Below, one piece after another: positions 1 through 22,567 of a DNA stretch of 22,567 nt. The stretch is from a virus (taxonomy: Duplodnaviria > Heunggongvirae > Uroviricota > Caudoviricetes): the IMG/VR virus record IMGVR_UViG_2537562194_000013; one strand, given 5' to 3'. Numbering within the stretch: the stretch's first letter is position 1; every line of letters begins with the position of its first letter. The notes under the pieces were generated by a model. It saw only the letters and a list, made by a program, of their open reading frames with translations. It was not told the DNA's origin and did no database searches. The translations under genes were made by a program, and so were the position numbers.

Positions 1-432
1 GATATCAACGTTATTACCAATTTTTACTCTTGAACCAGGCATGTCACCATCTATCTGTCCAATGGTAGTATTCTGTCGCAAAACCAGATTTTCACCAGCA
101 TCAACAGCAAAATGAACAACAATTCCAGTATGATGGGGAATTGTTAAACCTTTTCCAATATTTGCGCCCAATCCAATTTCGCAACCAAATCTGTTAATTA
201 TATTATTGTTTAACTTTCTGGCTGCTTTCTTATGTAATTTATTGCCATTAATATACATTTCATTAGCCAGTCTCCACCAGAAAAGGAAATTCCGATTGCG
301 CTGCTTCTTCTCTCTTAATAGTCGCCAAACATCCATTTTTTCACGCCTGATGATTTCAGCCATCCAGTAGCTCAATAGAGCTTTTGAATTCCCGAAGATG
401 ACAAAGTGAATAGCTATTAAGTAACATAACAT
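1..432 (-). CDS. Hexapeptide-repeat acetyltransferase (WcaB/CysE-like family), 5' part only; the gene runs off the left edge of the window
   Basis: Minus-strand frame is open from ATG at 432 to position 1, with an in-frame stop just upstream at 460-462. It was not in the supplied ORF track because it has no stop inside the window. Translation begins MLCYLIAIHFVIFGNSKALLSYWMAEII and ends with left-handed beta-helix hexapeptide repeats (RFGCEIGLGANIGKGLTIPHHTGIVVHFAVDAGENLVLRQNTTIGQIDGDMPGSRVKIGNNVDI) typical of serine/polysaccharide O-acetyltransferases. The region is clearly AT-rich compared with the rest of the window. Confidence 0.6.
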   Translation of the reverse strand, partial: MLCYLIAIHFVIFGNSKALLSYWMAEIIRREKMDVWRLLREKKQRNRNFLFWWRLANEMYINGNKLHKKAARKLNNNIINRFGCEIGLGANIGKGLTIPHHTGIVVHFAVDAGENLVLRQNTTIGQIDGDMPGSRVKIGNNVDI

Positions 433-4841: not shown

Positions 4842-7829
4842 ATGAGCTTAAGCGATCAGGTGGTAATGGCCACCAGCATAGAAACGCTGATCGAGCTGCT
4901 AAAGAACCTGCCCGATTATGGGCGGGTTTCGTATGTGGTGACAGCGAAGGGAGACGAGGTAAAAACAGCGTTTGATATCGTCGATGCCTCAGCTCTTTTG
5001 GTATCCAATACTCTGGATGGGAAAATTAATCCAGACTATCCCCAGGAACTTCAGCCGCGCGACCGGACCCGCGCATCCAGCCTTCTTCAGGTCAACCAGA
5101 TATCCAAGGATTTGCGTCCTGCCCAGCTTACCGATTCCGGTTTATCCAGCCATGGCGCGCCAATAATTGGTGAGGACAATGCCGTTGAGTCAGGTAATGG
5201 GCGGACCATGGGGATCATTAAAGCCTATCAGGACGGTAATGCGGATCGGTATCGGGAGTACCTGATTGAACATGCGACCGAATTCGGCATACGGCCTGAA
5301 AAGGTTGAATCAATGACGGCTCCGGTACTGGTGCGCCGCCGGTTAACGACGGTTGACCGTGTTCAGTTTGCCAAGGACTCAAATATTTCTGATCTCCAGG
5401 AAATGGCAGCCAGTGAAAAGGCTTTTGTTGATGCCGACAGCATAACACCGGCGATGATGGCGCTTTTTAACCCGTCAGAAAGCGGAGATCTGCTTAGCCG
5501 CAGTAATGACGCGTTTATTCGCGGATTTATGACGCAAGTTGGTGCCACACAGGCGGCTGGCCTTGTAACTGAAGATGGGCGACCAACACGGCAACTTGTT
5601 GACCGTATACAAAACGCGATCTTTGCCAAGGCATATAAGGATGCGCGCCTGGTAAGGATGGTTGCAGAAGAACCTGATCCGGATATGCGTAATGTTCTGA
5701 CGGCGCTTAATGCGGCAGCCAATGATTTTGTCCAGATGCAGGCTTTATCAGGAGAAGCGCACAAGCAGGCTGTGACAACCATTGTTGATGGTATTGAAAC
5801 AGCGGATAGCCTCGATAAAAAGGCGCTGGCGGCATTGAAAGATGCGGTAGACCTGGTAAGGCAATCGAAGGAGTCAGGCCAACATATTACCGATGTTATT
5901 GCTCAGGGGGATATGTTCAGCGAAACGGCCCCGGAAGTGAAAGCACTCGCGTTGTTCATCGTCGCGAATAACCGTAGCGCGAAGCGTATGGCCACCGCCT
6001 TTAAGTTGATGGCGCAACGTATCAATGATGAGTTACAGCACCAGGGCCAGGCGCTGGGGGATATGTTTGGCGGCGGCGATGTGTCGTTACAGGATATCCT
6101 TCGCCAGGTGTCTCAGGAACTGGAAAACGAAGGCATGCAAGGGATATCCGGCGGTCTTTTCGAGTCCGTTTCCGGCGGTAGTTACAACGGTGTTGCTCCG
6201 TATACCAGTTTGCTATTACATCGGGCATCCGGCATCAAAGACATTATTCATCTGATCAGGCTGCTTTCCCGCACAGATCCCCAGGATGAACAGCTTGTAC
6301 AAGTGCTTGCGCATTTTGTTCGAATGCCTGTTGCCGACGTGAAAAAATGGTGCCGATTATTCGGTATCAGCAATTCGTTACTTCGCGGCTTGTTAAATCA
6401 CGCATCCTCCCTTGGGCGCGATGGCTTTGACGAGATAGCGCAGGCGATAAAAAACGGAGATATGCCACCAGCTATTGACTGGTTTTCCATTCGCCCAACC
6501 AGGGTGAAAGCATTCCTTAGCGCGGCGCATTCGGCATCACCATTGGCAGAAATGGTTCAGAGGTTATCGCTCATATTCACAGACCATACCGCGTTGGGTG
6601 ATCTGACTCTGGACGAGATGAAGGAAGCCTCCATTCAGTGGGCCGATCAACAAAATGAGGTTAACTCAGACTTCTTGCCAGCATTCAGGAAGGCCGTTAG
6701 TAAAGCGGATGATGCCCGTGGAATTCTGAAGGCATTTAAGGCATTGCAAAGTCGTGTTAATAAACATGTCGGTGATATCGATGGGGTAACGGAGGAAGGC
6801 CGGGATATCCTTAAAGATCACGGCATAACGCCAGAGTTTATTGATGAGATCAGGACTGATATGCAGCGTGAGGTCGTATCGTCCCTGCAAATCGTAGCCA
6901 GAGCGTTGGCGGATGCTAATCCGAAGAGTGCGGCCATTGTTAACCGGGTTATTGGTGATATAGAAGCATCGGAGGGCATGGGGGCGCTGAAACTCTTCCT
7001 TTCGCGAGCGTTTAATCCTAACGGCAATATTCTCCCTGGCATTATTGGTGAGGCTAAAAAGTATGTCAGTGAAGAAGAACTTGAGCAGCTTGACCAACTA
7101 CTTAAGCGATTCTCATATAACCCGCAGACACGCTGGCAAATGAATCAGCGAAGTATGGGTTCGGTCCACGAGAAAGTGTTATCTGCCATGAACAGTGCGA
7201 TCGCAAACTCATCCGTATCTGAAGAAAAAGCTCTTGAGTGGGCCGACTCTTTTATCACAGAAGAAGTGGAAGAAGCCCGCGCTGGACAGAATGGTGGGAT
7301 AGACCTGCGCAAGGAACTTGCTGATATTTATCGCCTGACCGGCGGGAAAATATCGACCTTATCAAAGGTAGTTCACCACCAGGGAAGGGCATATGCAAAT
7401 CTAAATGGTGTTGTTGCTGTCAATTTGAACGATAAAAATGCAAGTGCACTGTGGCACGAGCTGGGTCATCATCTTGAGTACAGTAACCCTGGTTTGTTAG
7501 AGAAAGCCCGGTCATTCCTGAAGGCCAATGTTGAAGGGGATAAGCCATCATTCGTCAATATCGGTGGGCGTGGCAAGCCTGAATGGTGCTTCAGATCTCG
7601 ATTGAGTAATATTTATATGGCGAAGGTATACCCGCCAGCCTCAGTAAGTAATTCCGGGAAAATTCGGCAGAAATCACCGACTATTTCCAAAACGTCAGCA
7701 ACGGAAGTATTCTCTATGGCTCTTCAGTTGTATCATGACAAAGAGGCCGCTGCCGCATCACTGATGAATGGTGACGGATTGCTGGAACTGTTATTAGGTG
7801 TGGCAAAGGAGCTAAATAATGCAGATTAA
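4842..7829 (+). CDS. ddrB: DdrB (large dar-operon protein)
   Basis: 995 aa uninterrupted ORF immediately downstream of ddrA. Size and position match P1 ddrB. No catalytic motif was recognised by eye. Confidence 0.85.
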   Translation: MSLSDQVVMATSIETLIELLKNLPDYGRVSYVVTAKGDEVKTAFDIVDASALLVSNTLDGKINPDYPQELQPRDRTRASSLLQVNQISKDLRPAQLTDSGLSSHGAPIIGEDNAVESGNGRTMGIIKAYQDGNADRYREYLIEHATEFGIRPEKVESMTAPVLVRRRLTTVDRVQFAKDSNISDLQEMAASEKAFVDADSITPAMMALFNPSESGDLLSRSNDAFIRGFMTQVGATQAAGLVTEDGRPTRQLVDRIQNAIFAKAYKDARLVRMVAEEPDPDMRNVLTALNAAANDFVQMQALSGEAHKQAVTTIVDGIETADSLDKKALAALKDAVDLVRQSKESGQHITDVIAQGDMFSETAPEVKALALFIVANNRSAKRMATAFKLMAQRINDELQHQGQALGDMFGGGDVSLQDILRQVSQELENEGMQGISGGLFESVSGGSYNGVAPYTSLLLHRASGIKDIIHLIRLLSRTDPQDEQLVQVLAHFVRMPVADVKKWCRLFGISNSLLRGLLNHASSLGRDGFDEIAQAIKNGDMPPAIDWFSIRPTRVKAFLSAAHSASPLAEMVQRLSLIFTDHTALGDLTLDEMKEASIQWADQQNEVNSDFLPAFRKAVSKADDARGILKAFKALQSRVNKHVGDIDGVTEEGRDILKDHGITPEFIDEIRTDMQREVVSSLQIVARALADANPKSAAIVNRVIGDIEASEGMGALKLFLSRAFNPNGNILPGIIGEAKKYVSEEELEQLDQLLKRFSYNPQTRWQMNQRSMGSVHEKVLSAMNSAIANSSVSEEKALEWADSFITEEVEEARAGQNGGIDLRKELADIYRLTGGKISTLSKVVHHQGRAYANLNGVVAVNLNDKNASALWHELGHHLEYSNPGLLEKARSFLKANVEGDKPSFVNIGGRGKPEWCFRSRLSNIYMAKVYPPASVSNSGKIRQKSPTISKTSATEVFSMALQLYHDKEAAAASLMNGDGLLELLLGVAKELNNAD

Positions 7830-8133
7830 AATCGCAGCGCCATTAGGCGGAGATGCCATTATCGAATTTGATGATAATGAAGAAGTTTCCGGGCGTTTAA
7901 GCATTATCTCCGGTGACATTACCGAGGACATGATCGCTGAAGCCATAGCTGGGGCAAATCCCAATAGCTATATGGGATTCGTTAACACCCTTGATGCTCC
8001 CGCAAGTGATGTTCTCCGAACGCTGCATCTTTACGCTGGCTGGTTTGTTGATTGGCCAGCAGTAGAGGGTGGCGATGAGGACGACGATGATGACGATGAT
8101 TTTGGGGATCATGTAGACCAGATCGTATATTGA
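7819..8133 (+). CDS. Small, very acidic protein with a poly-Asp C-terminal tract; last gene of the dar operon
   Basis: 104 aa. ATG 7819 has AAGGAG 7 nt upstream and overlaps the ddrB stop, so it is translationally coupled. It has about 25 Asp/Glu against 3 Lys/Arg and ends EGGDEDDDDDDDFGDHVDQIVY. A strong terminator follows directly. Confidence 0.7.
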   Translation: MQIKIAAPLGGDAIIEFDDNEEVSGRLSIISGDITEDMIAEAIAGANPNSYMGFVNTLDAPASDVLRTLHLYAGWFVDWPAVEGGDEDDDDDDDFGDHVDQIVY

Positions 8134-8137
8134 AGAA

Positions 8138-8164
8138 ATCCCGCCAATCGGCGGGATTTTTTTT
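8138..8164. terminator. Rho-independent terminator between the convergent dar operon and the ssb operon
   Basis: 8-bp GC-rich stem (ATCCCGCC / GGCGGGAT), 4-nt loop, then a run of 7 T. It follows the stop at 8133 on the plus strand and overlaps the stop of the minus-strand gene at 8163. Confidence 0.85.
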
Positions 8165-8951
8165 AATCGCTTTCCACTTCTTCCGTGGTGTTTTCTTGCA
8201 GTTCTGTTAATGCAGCACGACATAGGTTCCGGGCATTGGATATAGCCACACTTTTGACTTCATCCGTCATCGTGCAGGTAATGTACTGATCGAGTTCTTC
8301 AGCGCGGATGATGCTTTTGCCAATCAGAAACTGTATTTGCCAGAGCAGATCGGCATCCATAATCAGAATTTCTGCCGGGCCTTCAGGGCCAGCCGGGAAG
8401 GAAACATAAGACTGTTTGCCCAGGCCGATAACTCGACAACTTGCTTCAAGAATTGCGCGCTTGAGGTCTGACTTTGTAACTGAAACAGGTTGATTTTCAC
8501 CTGCGATTACGCCGTTGACATGGATGTGGAAGGGCATGTAGCTTGAAATTCGCTCTACTTTCCATACGCCAGCAAGCGATCCTTCATGCAGCACAATGGG
8601 GGTAACCGCGAGTTTCATCTCACCATATAACTGCTGGCAGATAACTGGATTACTGAATACATCCAGAGGTTCACACTCAAACAGCGGCGCAATCTGCATG
8701 AGGTCCATCATGGTCATACCAGGGGTACGAGCAGTAATGAATCTGCGCATTCCAGTATCCATTGTGCGCCAGATAGCTACACCATGCTTTTTGCTCACTT
8801 CTTCAGTAAAGCCAAGGTGGCACATGATGGTTTTTTCGATAGCCAGATCAGAGATCGAAACCTTTTCGCCAGGCACACCATCATTATTGATGGTCACTTC
8901 GACACTCTGACCATTACGCAGGCGGTATTGAATTGCTTTAGTATTTTCCAC
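8163..8951 (-). CDS. Hypothetical protein (262 aa), last gene of the ssb operon
   Basis: GTG start at 8951 with GGAG 9 nt upstream; it begins 6 nt after the upstream gene's stop. Acidic C-terminus (ELQENTTEEVESD). No recognisable motif. I am not aware of an intact counterpart in P1, which as I recall carries an IS1 insertion around this position. Confidence 0.65.
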   Translation of the reverse strand: MENTKAIQYRLRNGQSVEVTINNDGVPGEKVSISDLAIEKTIMCHLGFTEEVSKKHGVAIWRTMDTGMRRFITARTPGMTMMDLMQIAPLFECEPLDVFSNPVICQQLYGEMKLAVTPIVLHEGSLAGVWKVERISSYMPFHIHVNGVIAGENQPVSVTKSDLKRAILEASCRVIGLGKQSYVSFPAGPEGPAEILIMDADLLWQIQFLIGKSIIRAEELDQYITCTMTDEVKSVAISNARNLCRAALTELQENTTEEVESD

Positions 8952-8957
8952 GTTAAA

Positions 8958-9635
8958 TCACTCCACTACAAACCAGTCACATGCCAGTAAGTCGCCTACA
9001 GAAGGAACCCACGGAACAACTACACCTTGTGCATTTTTTAAGGCGAAATAAGCACCATACGGAACGAGGTCGCCGGGGAAATATCCCTTAATGGCTTCCA
9101 TTCGTGCCGGGTACTGTCCTTCAGGAACCAGCCAGCAGAATTGGTTTTCGCCGTTCCACCCGCGTCGGGCAACTTTCTTGCCATCCTTCAGCCACATCAG
9201 CGCGTCAGAAAAGTCGGCTGCTTCAAGGTCGATTTCTTCTTGTAGAGTAGCGATACCGCCAGCAGAAATAGTTACGTCCCTGGCTGTAATGAATGTCACC
9301 CCATTGTGACCTTCAATGCTGAGCGATACCCCATTTTCGAAGAAGTCGTTAGTCCGACTAAAGCCTTCTTCAAATGTTTTTTCTGGTGAATAGGACAGAG
9401 ATCCGTCCTCATAAGCGACCAGATATCCGCCAATTTCTGGTCGGTGTTTTTGCAAAAATATTTTATCAACATGGACTTTTACCCCTTCTGGCTCAACGAC
9501 TTCGATGTTGCAAAAAAGGACCACATCCATTAGGGCGATAATTTCGATATCTTTGATTTTTGAGGCGCGAACTGTTTTATGGCTTTTGTATTTTGGAAGT
9601 GCCGTCAAAAGCTCTTTCGTTGTCATGTTATTCAT
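8958..9635 (-). CDS. Two-domain protein with a C-terminal DUF2829 (Tad2-like) domain
   Basis: I prefer ATG 9635 (MNNMTTKELL...), which has an AGAGGA ribosome-binding site, over the track start at 9803. The C-terminal ~80 aa (FSDALMWLKDGKKVARRGWNGENQFCWL...VVVPWVPSVGDLLACDWFVVE) fits the DUF2829 signature as I recall it: ALK-GKK-RR-GWNG, then PW-PS--DLLA-DW. The N-terminal ~140 aa is unrecognised. Confidence 0.7.
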   Translation of the reverse strand: MNNMTTKELLTALPKYKSHKTVRASKIKDIEIIALMDVVLFCNIEVVEPEGVKVHVDKIFLQKHRPEIGGYLVAYEDGSLSYSPEKTFEEGFSRTNDFFENGVSLSIEGHNGVTFITARDVTISAGGIATLQEEIDLEAADFSDALMWLKDGKKVARRGWNGENQFCWLVPEGQYPARMEAIKGYFPGDLVPYGAYFALKNAQGVVVPWVPSVGDLLACDWFVVE

Positions 9636-9832
9636 AGTCTTTCCTCTGCTTAAAACCTGATGTATTGCGCCTTCAGGTGGGTCAGGAATGTTTTCCCACC
9701 AGCGAACGCAATATCTCGGGGTGTTCTTTTCGTGAAAAGCGCGTGCCATTGCCAACTTTGGCGTTTGTTTGCGAGTTCGTGCTTTTGTCGGCGTCTGGAC
9801 CACCGCTTTTCTTTCAGTCGTTTTTTACACAT

Positions 9833-10321
9833 TCAAAACGGAATATCGTCGTCAAAGTCCATTGGAGGTTCGTTATTGGCGTTGCTCTGAGGTTTACCGC
9901 CACCACTGTATTGCTGGTGGTTTTGAGGTTGGTTTGATTGCCCCCAGCCATTTGAGGACTGTGAATCGTCACGGCGAGCGCCGATCATTTGCATGGTGCC
10001 GCCCTGGCTGACGATAATTTCCGTCGTGTAACGTTCTACACCGGCGTCATCTGTCCACTTACGGGTTTTAAGTTTCCCTTCGATGTAGACCTGAGAACCT
10101 TTTCGTAAATACTCACTCGCAATTTCAGCAAGTTTTCCGAACAAAACGACTTTATGCCATTCTGTTTGCTCTTTCTGTTGGCCCGTTTGCTTGTCGCGCC
10201 ATGATTCATTCGTTGCGATGCTGAGTCTTCCGACCGCTCCGCCATTTGGTATATACCTGATCTCCGGGTCTTGCCCCAGAGTACCAATCAGGATGACTTT
10301 GTTTACACCGCGTTGTGCCAC
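9833..10321 (-). CDS. ssb: Single-stranded DNA-binding protein
   Basis: 162 aa. N-terminal OB-fold signature ([20 protein letters not shown]...[37 protein letters not shown]), Gly/Gln-rich linker, and the canonical acidic tail [11 protein letters not shown] start at 10321. Confidence 0.92.
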
Positions 10322-10340
10322 TTATCTTACCTAATAAAAT

Positions 10341-10357
10341 AAATTAATTAGAGCAAT
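10341..10357 (-). promoter_or_regulatory. P1 C1-repressor operator-like 17-mer in the ssb promoter region
   Basis: The minus-strand sequence ATTGCTCTAATTAATTT matches the asymmetric C1 operator consensus ATTGCTCTAATAAATTT at 16 of 17 positions. It lies 20-36 bp upstream of the ssb start, just downstream of a TATACA -10-like hexamer in the ssb direction. Confidence 0.55.
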
Positions 10358-10490
10358 AATGTATATCTTTGAAACGTAGCTAACAAGTGATTTGCATTAT
10401 CCTGTGCCTTCTAAAGGGATCGAGTCAGTCGGTATTGGCTGTGAATGGGTGTTTGTCCTGGAGCGTAAAAAATTCGCTTATGAGGTCTTT

Positions 10491-14136: not shown

Positions 14137-17100
14137 ATGAACAAGCTATCTATGGGGGTGTTTCGCTGTTCAAGTGTCAGCGAAATATTAAAATACATTA
14201 GGGCAATAACATCTCACCAAGCGCCGATTAAATATGGCGTGGAAAAGGTGGAAGGCAAAAGCTATGACCGACTGCGCCGGGAGGCGAATCAGAAGGCGAT
14301 AGATTTGCTTAATTCGCTGGTGGACGGCGCGACACTGACAGATGAACAGCGCCAGATCCTGGCTGGGTACACCGGTGAAGGCGGCATTGGCGGGTCCGTC
14401 TCCGAATATTACACACCAAAGCCGATCGCTGAAGGTGTCTGGGAGATCATGAAGCTCTACGGCGCGGACGTAGGTAACACTCTGGAACCATCGGCGGGAA
14501 CCGGCGTTTTTAATGAGACAAAACCGGTTGGTACGGTGATGACCGCGACTGAGATCAGCAGTGTTTCCGGTCGTATAAACCAGTTGTTACACCCGGAAGA
14601 CAGCGTACAGATTTCCCCGTTCGAACAGCTGGCTATAAGCACGCCTAACGATTCATTCGACCATGTTGTGGGTAACGTTCCGTTCGGCGGTCGTGATAAC
14701 ACACGCAACATCGATAAGCCTTACGCAGAAGAAACGGACATGGGTTCTTACTTCATGCTCCGCATGCTGGACAAGATAAAGCCAGGCGGATTCATGTGCG
14801 TGATTGTGCCGCCGTCCATTGTTTCAGGTTCAAACATGAAGCGGTTACGCCTGCGCCTATCACGGAAAGCTGAATTTCTTGGTGCCCACCGCTTGCCTAC
14901 CGGTACTTTTGACGCAAACGGGACCAGTACAGTCGTTGATGTGGTGCTGATGCGCAAACATCCGGCAGAGATGGCTGAGAAAATCCCCCTGGTGGATGAA
15001 AGCACTCTTGAATCGGCAAATGTGCTTTGGCCAACGTTTATTTCTGGCAAGTGGTTTGAAAAGGATGGCCGCCGGTTTGTTCATGGCACCCAGGAAAAGG
15101 GCTTCCAGGGGCGTATTGAGGTTCGTGCCGACGGTCAGATTGATAACCAGGCTCTTAAAGCGAAGCTGATTCATCGTTTCGAAAGCCGTATCGACTGGTC
15201 TTTGCTCGATATGGCTGAACCGTCACTGACCGCAGACGTTGTTGGTGAAGGGGAAATGCGCCTGATTAATGGCGTATGGCAAAAATATGCTGGTGGTCGC
15301 TGGATTGAAGCTGATGCCGGGAAGGAACTTAAAATTGATGCTGCCAGTTATGGCGCGGATAGCTGGGAGGCTCTTCAGCGTAACCTGACTACAACAGAAG
15401 GCCGTCTCGGTATGACATTTACCCAGATGGCAAATGTCCGCGATAAGTACACCACATCAATCAGCGACGATATGGTGCAGCTGGTGGACTGGATTAACAG
15501 CCAGCCTGAAAAATACCGTGAACGCTTGTATCGTGGGGCGATGATTGGCCGGATGTTAATTGAATATCAGGATATGAAGGCCGCCGGGCATAGTGCTGAA
15601 CAAATCGAACAGCAGCGCCTTTCTCTGGTATCCCGTTTGCAGGCAGAGATTGACCGTTTTGGTAACCCTGGTCGCGGTCCGATAGCTAAATTATCGGGAA
15701 GCGGTGCGCGCGCCTGGTTTGCTTTCCGTGGTGCAATTAAGCTGGATGGCACTATTTCTGACGAGCTGACAGGAAAGCTGGTTACGCATGATTCCAGCGC
15801 CAGTTATGACTCCACCAGCTATCAGGACACCCTGCGTTATCTCTATAGCGATCTTACCCGCGATCCAATCCAGCTCGATGATTTCCGCCTTGCGTTTACC
15901 GGCGAATTGCCAGCCAGTGATGAAGAGTTGCTTAATTTATTGGCCAGCACTCCTGGTATTGCGGTTTCACCGTATGGCGGGATTGTTCCGTTCGCCCGCG
16001 CCACCAGCGGCGACATTAACGAGATAGTGGCTCCAAAACAGGAATTCCTCGCCACGCTCCCCGACGGTCCAGTAAAGAACAACGTCCTTAATCAGCTGGC
16101 AGCGATCGAAGAGAAGCGCATCAAGACGCCAGCAGAGAATATCCGGTTTAAGCTCAATAGCCGTTGGTTCGACCGTTCCGTCATTCTGGAGTTTTTGCAG
16201 GAAAACGGCTATCCGGATCTGCGCTATGTGCAGTCAGTGCAGCTGGAAGGCGACGAAATGGTTTCTGACACCTATCACGGTGGTGATGGCCTGTTCGTCG
16301 GGCACCGATACGGTGTCGTCCAGCGCAAGGATAAAGAAACAGGCGAGATCCGCTACGAGTGGGACCGTAAATCAGGTGAAAACGCGACCGGGTTCCCGGC
16401 ACAGCTGGAAAAGTATCTCAATGGTGCGCGTATCGGTGGCAAAGATAGCGCGACGGCGAACGGCTACCGCGAGCAGATGGCACTGCTTGAGGACCAGTTC
16501 AATAAGTGGATCAAGACGCACGATCGCTACGATGAACTGGTTGCCAAATACAACGATGTGTTCAATAGCAATATCCCGTATGAACACTCTGGCGATCCGC
16601 TTGGGTTGAAGGGATTAAGCGGTAAGCGCCAGCCATTTGATTACCAGAATAGCGAAGTGCGCCGACTGTCCGAAGATGGGCGCGGCATCCTGGGCTTCGG
16701 CACCGGGCTGGGTAAAACTACGACCGCGCTGGCGCTTGAGGCGTTCAACTATGAGAACGGTCGCTCCACCCGTACTGCGTATGTAGTGCCTAAATCAGTG
16801 CTGGAAAACTGGTATTACGAAGCAAAAGAATTCCTGAGTGAAGAGGCATTCAGTAACTACCTGTTCGTCGGTCTTGATGTGCTGATGGATGGCGATCAGA
16901 TTCGCCAGGTGCCGGTGCTCGATGAGAACGGTAAACCTGTTCTTGGTACTGATGGCACTCCAGTTATGCGCGATGCCCTAAAACTGGCAGATGAAGCCAC
17001 TATCACGGCGCGGATGAACGCGATCCCGCACTCAAATTACCGTGCAGTCGTGTTTACCAAAGAACAATACGCCCGCATTCCGCTACGTGATGACACCGTA

Positions 17101-20937: not shown

Positions 20938-21378
20938 ATGGCCACACTATCTGATACAATAAAACCGAATAAAACATATCTTGAGGCGGTACTCCGTACA
21001 GCGTTGTTAGGAAAGACAGAAGACGAATACGTTGATTTCTTCCTGTCAGGGCTACGCGGGCGATTACTGAAAAATCCCCGCCTGTACCGCAGCTATGGCC
21101 CATACTGGCCGGAAATTAAAAAATTATTACTGGAGCGCGGTTATGGTAATTTCGGTCGTCTCGTTGACCGTGACGTTCGCAAAATTTACCGTTATGACCG
21201 CCCGGCGCTGACGCTCATAGCTGCGACGCTCTACAGCCAGGAGCGTTTTGATAATGGTCAGATATACTCAGCCTGGCATTTACTGCCAGTGCCTGAAGAG
21301 GTTGACGACCAGGACTATGAGTTTGAGTCTTACGATTTGGAAGTTGAAGCCTTGGCACAGGCTGGAGAGAAAACTTGA
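20938..21378 (+). CDS. ulx: Ulx-like protein (darB-associated)
   Basis: 146 aa, immediately downstream of darB and upstream of the 82-aa ORF, as in the P1 darB-ulx-lxc order. The name is assigned by synteny and size only. Confidence 0.5.
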   Translation: MATLSDTIKPNKTYLEAVLRTALLGKTEDEYVDFFLSGLRGRLLKNPRLYRSYGPYWPEIKKLLLERGYGNFGRLVDRDVRKIYRYDRPALTLIAATLYSQERFDNGQIYSAWHLLPVPEEVDDQDYEFESYDLEVEALAQAGEKT

Positions 21379-21623
21379 AGAAGCGATACTACACAGTAAA
21401 GCATGGGACGCTACGAGCATTGCAAGAGTTTGCTGATAAGCATAACGTTGAGGTGCGCAGGGAAGGGGGAAGTAAAGCTCTGCGCATGTACCGTCCTGAC
21501 GGAAAATGGCGGACGGTCGTCGATTTCAAAACTAACAGTGTTCCCCAGGGCGTCCGCGACCGGGCATTCGAAGAATGGGAGCAGATCATCATAGATAACG
21601 CATTGCTCCTGAATGCTGATTAA
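21375..21623 (+). CDS. Small basic protein (82 aa); Lxc/Bof-like by position
   Basis: TTG start at 21375 with GGAGAG 7 nt upstream, overlapping the preceding stop (TTGA). It sits where P1 has lxc, the modulator of C1 repression. Sequence identity to Lxc is not verified. Confidence 0.45.
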   Translation: MKKRYYTVKHGTLRALQEFADKHNVEVRREGGSKALRMYRPDGKWRTVVDFKTNSVPQGVRDRAFEEWEQIIIDNALLLNAD

Positions 21624-21638
21624 ACTTCCCGCCATTTT

Positions 21639-21656
21639 GCCCGGCATCAACCGGGC
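21639..21656. terminator. Hairpin GCCCGG-CATCAA-CCGGGC between convergent genes
   Basis: 6-bp GC stem with a 6-nt loop, followed by ATTCTTCC on the plus strand. The T-tract is weak. Confidence 0.35.
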
Positions 21657-21665
21657 ATTCTTCCA

Positions 21666-22535
21666 TTATTCAGCCGCCACCGGTTTTAACAAGCCAGCAT
21701 CGAGCAGTTTACGCGTCAACCACTGCTGGCCTTTACCCGTTAATTGAGGCGTCAACCGTATCTGGTAGCCATCTTCATCATCCAGCACCACTTCTTTCAC
21801 CGTGAAATACCCCGCGTTGATGTACTGCTGGAACGGCACATTTTTACGTCCACCGGACGCTATCAGGATGCCGTTCTCCCGTAACCAGACAAACAGCGCG
21901 TTTTGCTTAAGTCCAACAACCTTTGCAAAATTCCCAATCAGGATCCCTTTAGCTACTGATACCCGGTCGGCAAAATCGACTTTAGGAGCGGCGGCCACCA
22001 GCTGCTGATTTAGCTGGTGGGCTTTCTGTTCCAGAAGTTGCTTTTGTTCAGCCAGTTCGGCAGCCAGGCGTAGGGCTTCAGGAAGCGTCTGGGGGATTGC
22101 GATCGGTTGCTGTTCTTTTTGTCGGAAGTAGCTGTCTTCCAGTTTTTCAAAGAATGCCCATGCCTGATCGGTTTCGAGCATTTTAGCGTGGCGGGCTGCG
22201 CCGCGTTCTGTCCAGAGGGTGAGTGAGCGAACATTGCGAGCAATTTTTACAGAGTAGTTTAAAGCTACTCTGTGCTTCAACTCGCGCAATGATTCTCCTT
22301 CAACTTTGAAAAAGTGCTTCCCTTCAACAAAGCGTACTTTGTTCTCATGATGATTTTGGCGAATACGGATTGTTTCTGTCCCATACCCTCTAGCAAGAGT
22401 CTCGGTTGTCACTACACGCACTCCCTGCCATTCCAGAACGGGAATTTCATCAGACTGATTCTGAACAACCACCAGCTCCGATTCCTGAACTGAAGGTGCA
22501 TGAATTTTTTCTAATTTAACGTTATTTGCTTTCAT
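21666..22535 (-). CDS. Phage antirepressor-like protein with N-terminal ORF6N domain and C-terminal KilAC/Ant domain
   Basis: 289 aa. ATG 22535 with AAGGAGG 8 nt upstream. N-terminal signature (WQGVRVVTTETLARGYGTETIRIRQNHHENKVRFVEGKHFFKVEGESLRELK) and a C-terminal Ant-type region (FADRVSVAKGILIGNFAKVVGLKQNALFVWLRENGILI) flank a central Gln-rich linker. Confidence 0.75.
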   Translation of the reverse strand: MKANNVKLEKIHAPSVQESELVVVQNQSDEIPVLEWQGVRVVTTETLARGYGTETIRIRQNHHENKVRFVEGKHFFKVEGESLRELKHRVALNYSVKIARNVRSLTLWTERGAARHAKMLETDQAWAFFEKLEDSYFRQKEQQPIAIPQTLPEALRLAAELAEQKQLLEQKAHQLNQQLVAAAPKVDFADRVSVAKGILIGNFAKVVGLKQNALFVWLRENGILIASGGRKNVPFQQYINAGYFTVKEVVLDDEDGYQIRLTPQLTGKGQQWLTRKLLDAGLLKPVAAE

Positions 22536-22567
22536 TCTGTGTGCCTCCTTGCGTGCTTCGGCTGCGA

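Follow-up and report, generated by a model that had tools for sequence, protein, structure and literature searches.

The site at positions 10341–10357 of the DNA analysed here (a window of 22,567 nucleotides) is, by its sequence, Op21/Ossb, a named and already described operator to which the C1 repressor of phage P1 binds in front of the ssb gene. Its recognition in this window is a rediscovery, because three GenBank records (two for P1 and one for P7) annotate exactly these bases. Our overall explanation, to which we assign a probability of roughly 0.95, is that at this P1-type Op21 the C1 repressor, together with Lxc, would silence ssb, and that release of the repressor would turn on a leftward unit that extends to 8136–8159. 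What is established in it is that the sequence is identical to the operator and promoter annotated in P1, that the site is conserved, that the operator motif is enriched genome-wide in relatives and that induction of P1 ssb has been published. To judge from alignment, the window itself is a P1-type phage-plasmid (Punavirus). Over 88% of its length it has ~98% identity to phage P1; its identity to the E. coli plasmid p95JB1A (NZ_CP021336) is 99.6%, and 100% over 8900–10400. The coordinates of the features are collected in Table 1.

Table 1. Features of the window that bear on C1 control of ssb (strand cell left empty for the hairpin)
Feature	Position	Strand	Basis or remarks
C1 repressor operator Op21 / Ossb, ATTGCTCTAATTAATTT	10341..10357	-	monovalent, asymmetric 17-mer; 16/17 to consensus; same as the annotated P1 and P7 operator
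sigma-70 promoter P2ssb (former Pr21)	10358..10386	-	transferred from AF234172 / AF125376.2, 100% identical stretch
second sigma-70 promoter P1ssb, predicted only	10324..10352	-	AF234172 annotation transferred
[quoted passage not shown]
Tad2-domain gene, 225 aa from ATG 9635	8958..9635	-	PF11195, PDB, phrog_872, PGAP
262-aa gene, core of P1 'IsaA'	8163..8951	-	phrog_2326 end to end, E 3.7e-150
GC-rich hairpin AAUCCCGCC-GAUU-GGCGGGAUU, between an A-run and a T-run	8136..8159		folding
lxc (bof), co-repressor enhancing C1 binding to operators	21375..21623	+	82/82 identical to P1 Lxc

The plus strand of the site reads AAATTAATTAGAGCAAT, and its reverse complement, ATTGCTCTAATTAATTT, is the strand that corresponds to the C1 operator consensus known from the P1 literature, ATTGCTCTAATAAATTT. 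A scan of the window for this consensus (the initial annotation had proposed to scan the full element as a check) returned the site at 10341–10357 with one mismatch and a second match, at 14191–14207, with 3 mismatches. The minus-strand C1 operator that had been described from the sequence, matching at 16 of the 17 positions, is thus confirmed; its sole deviation is A12 to T, and the ATTGCTCTAAT core is intact. Sites with one mismatch or fewer are expected by chance at ~1.4e-4, given the base composition of the 22,567-nt window and counting both strands, and dinucleotide shuffles of the window contain a mean of 0.09 sites with three mismatches or fewer. Similarly, a PWM trained on the operators of two related elements, from which the ssb and darB sites had been left out, gave the site a score of 23.5–26.5 bits, which is in the range of the training operators themselves (19–28), and the best of 30 shuffles scored at most 19.6 bits.

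The operator ends 19 nt before the GTG start of ssb, and the proposal that it lies directly upstream of this gene holds. The site is identical to P1 Ossb, and the operator together with the ssb promoter is 100% identical to P1 (AF234172 and AF125376.2), and the only differences from P1 in the spacer between ssb and lyz are one SNP and one indel, both of which fall farther along, in the lyz leader. The P1 counterpart occupies 5683–5699 of AF125376.2, which labels it ‘operator 21 (Op21); binding site for the major P1 repressor protein C1’ and places the ‘promoter of ssb-P1’ and the ssb ribosome-binding site on either flank. The same bases are 21015–21031 of the P1 genome record, AF234172, in which they are a ‘monovalent C1-controlled operator Ossb; corresponds to former Op21’ with a cited identity to GenBank M25412, locus PP1OP21A; in the P7 record they are ‘Op(ssb); controls expression of ssb’. 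The window shares with P1 and P7 the 17-mer, the promoter, the distance to the ssb start, the orientation and the divergent late promoter of lyz. There is no difference in the operator itself, whereas the genes downstream of ssb differ. We take AF125376 to be the record of Lehnherr et al. 1999 (J Bacteriol), who are said to have found P1 ssb repressed in lysogens. For binding of C1 to Op21 in vitro, our basis is the GenBank annotations, one open-access rt-qPCR paper and the P1 literature in general; a full-text literature search for the name ‘Op21’ returned no match. Op21 itself is nothing new. It shows the element using the standard P1 immunity circuit, and it serves as a positive control, a real regulatory site that is recognisable from sequence alone.

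On the minus strand, the elements of the promoter region follow one another in the order -35, spacer, -10, operator, AGG-containing ribosome-binding site and ssb GTG. The promoter P2ssb has a -35 hexamer TTGTTA (10386–10381) and a -10 hexamer TACATT (10363–10358) separated by 17 bp, and the operator begins at the first base past TACATT. The initial annotation had pointed to an adjoining -10-like TATACA (10365–10360); this hexamer does overlap the real one, but it is displaced by 2 nt from the annotated -10, and its use would leave a spacer of only 15 bp. The predicted promoter P1ssb has its -35, TCTAAT, inside the operator and a -10 of TAAGAT. The ssb gene behind these signals is ~99% identical to that of P1.

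Because the operator covers the expected transcription start, C1 would block P2ssb, and from this geometry we infer that it most likely does so by sterically excluding RNA polymerase. In a lysogen, C1, aided by its co-repressor Lxc, would occupy the single asymmetric 17-bp site; the bound repressor would then cover the start region of P2ssb as well as the -35 of the predicted P1ssb, keeping polymerase off and ssb silent. If Coi or an antirepressor inactivates C1 at induction, or if a fresh infection has yet to produce C1, the host polymerase would transcribe leftward through ssb, and would most probably go on across the next two genes (Tad2-domain and 262-aa) as far as the hairpin. In P1, ssb is listed among the C1-controlled genes, and rt-qPCR found it induced after thermal inactivation of C1.100, with a peak that was both earlier and higher than that of ref (PMC4713147). 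In a CRISPRi screen, P1 ssb and isaA were both non-essential (PMC10695390). It had been suggested that the whole ssb operon is off in the prophage and switched on at induction. For ssb this is supported by the P1 and P7 annotations and by the rt-qPCR result, whereas the extension to all three genes is something that we infer.

The second gene of the unit had been called Tad2-like, and the designation is well founded. Its C-terminal domain matches Pfam PF11195 (Tad2/DUF2829) with an E value of 2.5e-22 and 79.6 bits, compared to a cut-off of 25, and the C-terminal 89 residues align with the solved Tad2 chains 9eib/8v3e over essentially their full length (residues 2–89 of 89, E ~6e-20). The 225-aa protein is thus a member of the Tad2 family by domain, with a putative anti-Thoeris activity. 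In comparison with the Tad2 anti-Thoeris proteins (PDB 8v3e, 9eib and 8sme; PF11195), it is alike in these C-terminal 89 residues but has an extra N-terminal domain of 136 residues, which is without assigned function (phrog_872, phrog_11049) and is absent from the solved Tad2 proteins of 88–104 aa. A longer reading of 281 aa, which the open reading frame allows up to a GTG at 9803, is less likely than a start at ATG 9635. We prefer the latter on three grounds that agree: the 225-aa form covers phrog_872 from end to end, PGAP calls the same form in p95JB1A, and the break in homology with P1 (below) falls at this codon. The ATG is preceded by AGAGGAAAG.

The third gene, which encodes the 262-aa protein, starts 6 nt past the stop codon of the Tad2 gene and at the DNA level is 95% identical to the last (3') 785 bp of P1 isaA; searches of Pfam and PDB with its product returned no match. 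Simple scans of the minus strand from 8163 to 10321 found neither a terminator nor a sigma-70-like promoter. Immediately beyond the last gene lies the hairpin at 8136–8159, which folds with -17.1 kcal/mol when read from the minus strand and with -22.6 kcal/mol (z -4.5) when read from the plus strand, and which is likely a bidirectional terminator that would serve both the ssb unit and the converging ddrB–hxr unit. This hairpin was found by reading and folding; the simple terminator scan missed it, because an A:T extension of the stem probably consumes the T tail. The simplest reading is that all three genes are transcribed together from P2ssb, under the control of Op21, because the scans found no internal terminator or promoter, the last two genes are 6 nt apart and the hairpin follows the last gene. 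We consider such co-transcription probable.

A competing explanation is that Op21 controls ssb only, and that expression of the Tad2-domain and 262-aa genes is independent of it, either from a promoter of their own or constitutively in the lysogen. The gap of 197 nt that separates the stop of ssb (9833) from where the Tad2 gene probably starts (9635) fits such an arrangement. So does the exchangeability of the module behind ssb, which is nmpC in P7 and missing altogether in JK004, a Cronobacter phage, and which suggests cargo that brings its own signals. However, no sigma-70-like promoter or intrinsic terminator was detected on the minus strand of the gap, the P1 annotation has no promoter there, and the sole terminator-like hairpin comes after the 262-aa gene. 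Moreover, the RNA of 9700–9840, 141 nt that follow the stop of ssb and span most of the gap, folds no better than shuffled sequences (z +0.36). Simple scans could have overlooked a weak promoter or Rho-dependent terminator in this spacer. Weighing these points, we regard independent expression of the two genes as rather unlikely, and we retain co-transcription from P2ssb as the preferred reading.

Comparison with P1 bears on the position of the Tad2 gene. P1 is without window positions 8948–9631, and the homology breaks exactly at the junction with ATG 9635; in P1 this ribosome-binding site and ATG are followed at once by the coding sequence of the 262-aa homologue (MTAQNTK...). The Tad2 gene therefore behaves as a cassette in a precise slot. 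The same junction implies that the annotated 320-aa IsaA of P1, which is read from a GTG, is probably 56 codons too long at its 5' end, and the 56 extra codons had no match to a PHROG family. P1 also differs from this element in having isaB and IS1 inserted at window 8132–8162. The slot from the ssb stop leftward to ~8132 thus holds variable cargo among P1-type elements: the window has the Tad2 and 262-aa genes in it, P1 the 262-aa homologue with IS1 and isaB, and P7 the porin gene nmpC, and in JK004 it is empty.

The full arrangement of Tad2, ssb and Op21 occurs in 106 of the 619 PLSDB plasmids that match 8900–10400, and a 2025 preprint (bioRxiv 10.1101/2025.09.12.675607) puts the share of phage-plasmids with Tad2 at 56% for P1-like and 93% for D6-like ones. 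Our literature search found no discussion of the placement of Tad2 under Op21. We lean slightly towards the view that, in this subset of plasmids, insertion of the cassette right behind the ribosome-binding site and ATG of the P1 262-aa gene would have brought Tad2 under Op21 and C1, such that C1 would double as a timer of anti-defence, keeping it silent in the prophage and letting it come on at infection or induction. Such a role would stay hidden in the classic P1 laboratory strain, because that strain is without the cassette. The only mildly new part of the analysis is this anti-Thoeris-type gene, absent from the reference P1, which probably rides on a C1-controlled unit. The practical gain is for annotation: genes behind ssb in P1-like plasmids, among them the Tad2-domain gene, become predictable as repressed in the lysogen and on early, which matters for work on the escape of phage-plasmids from Thoeris and comparable defences of the host.

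The remainder of the C1 circuit was sought in the window and in its relatives. The gene that had been described as lxc-like is indeed lxc, with 100% identity of its product to P1 Lxc, and the annotation of AF234172 gives the role of Lxc as enhancing the binding of C1 to all its operators. The c1 gene lies outside the 22.6-kb window; among relatives, the nearest complete one, p95JB1A, does carry it (WP_000611662.1, ‘phage repressor protein C1’), and to judge from its relatives this particular element would have C1 as well. The P1-type C1 circuit that had been proposed is supported by Lxc, by the operator and by the C1 of p95JB1A. Operator-like sites with three mismatches or fewer number 16 in p95JB1A, compared to 0.2 expected; 15 of them are intergenic, and each single site is oriented toward the gene behind it. 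There are 18 such sites in JK004, all outside annotated genes. Overall, the operator motif is enriched ~80-fold in the complete relatives, almost exclusively before genes. In JK004, in which ssb has ~70% identity, the spacer has largely diverged, and ATTGCTCTAATAATTAT and the -35 are kept at the same place before ssb.

Op21 shares with the other P1-type C1 operators (at ref, ban, kilA, c4/ant, lpa and coi/c1) the asymmetric 17-bp consensus with its invariant core, the location on or beside a sigma-70 promoter and the orientation toward the controlled gene. It is monovalent, in contrast to the paired sites at ban and c1, and T at position 12 is its single deviation from the consensus. As at the OR and OL operators of lambda, a repressor bound at the promoter silences lytic genes in the lysogen. 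The lambda operators, however, are symmetric, cooperative and clustered as triplets, whereas C1 sites are asymmetric, mostly single and spread over the genome, a scatter that is seen also in the distributions of p95JB1A and JK004.

Orientation also bears on the idea that the operator chiefly controls the divergent genes lyz, lydD and lydE by blocking a rightward sigma-70 promoter whose transcripts run through it. Such a promoter, Plyz, is predicted in AF234172 (-35 TTTACA at 10302–10307 and -10 TATCTT at 10323–10328), and transcripts that began there would cross the operator. Plyz is a prediction only, however, and the recognised promoter of lyz is the Lpa-dependent late promoter LPlyz (10385–10403), which lies beyond the operator. 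Furthermore, all single operators of p95JB1A face the gene that they control, Op21 faces ssb, and both the P1 and the P7 annotations assign the operator to ssb. We thus consider lyz very improbable as the chief target and ssb the controlled gene, with a secondary roadblock on the predicted Plyz being possible. Finally, a chance match without regulatory role, for which one might cite the AT-rich intergenic setting and the mere 17 bp of the site, is excluded for practical purposes, because it is at odds with the 1.4e-4 sites expected, with the identity to the annotated P1 and P7 operator, with the retention of the site in JK004 amid diverged flanks and with the ~80-fold enrichment of the motif before genes in relatives.

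The second operator-like site in the window, ATTGCCCTAATGTATTT at 14191–14207 on the minus strand, is located inside codons 19–24 of darB and has among its 3 mismatches a change in the core, T6 to C. It is oriented toward prt/pro rather than darB. The same site is found in P1 (AF234172 17166–17182), where it bears no operator annotation, and its homologue in JK004 (MZ188976 77919–77935), ATTGCTCTAATAAATCT, has only 1 mismatch to the consensus; conservation of the darB site is partly due to a conserved peptide, IRAIT. With the PWM the site in the window scores a marginal 15–17.7 bits. We do not claim it as an additional functional operator in this window, because the score is below those of all training operators and within the reach of shuffled sequences. 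It may be a decayed or weak operator, and it may be a relic of C1 control of prt/pro or of the darB region. In JK004 the annotated start of darB (gene_107; region 77899–77990 of MZ188976) appears to be ~30 codons too short, since the in-frame stretch upstream aligns with the N-terminus of P1-type DarB with conservative substitutions and no indels.

The gene order of the window was confirmed with Pfam and PHROGs. A plus-strand block of lydA, lydB, hdf, darA, ddrA, ddrB and hxr is followed on the minus strand by the 262-aa gene, the Tad2-domain gene and ssb; beyond ssb come lyz, lydD and lydE (plus strand), pro and prt (minus strand), darB, ulx and lxc (plus strand) and, at the right end, an antirepressor-like gene (minus strand). 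Both ends depart from P1. At the left, positions 1–1127 are absent from P1, and 1–432 (minus strand) map by coordinates to the 5' part of a p95JB1A gene annotated as serine O-acetyltransferase; the 144-aa fragment encoded there had no Pfam match. At the right, homology to P1 stops just past lxc, and in 21630–22567 the EcoP1 mod and res genes are replaced. The antirepressor-like gene at this end (Pfam ANT and ORF6N), which runs off the window on the minus strand, has 86.6% identity over 335 bp to P1 ant1/ant2. The plasmid p95JB1A has three icd/ant-type modules, and a C1 operator-like site precedes each of them.
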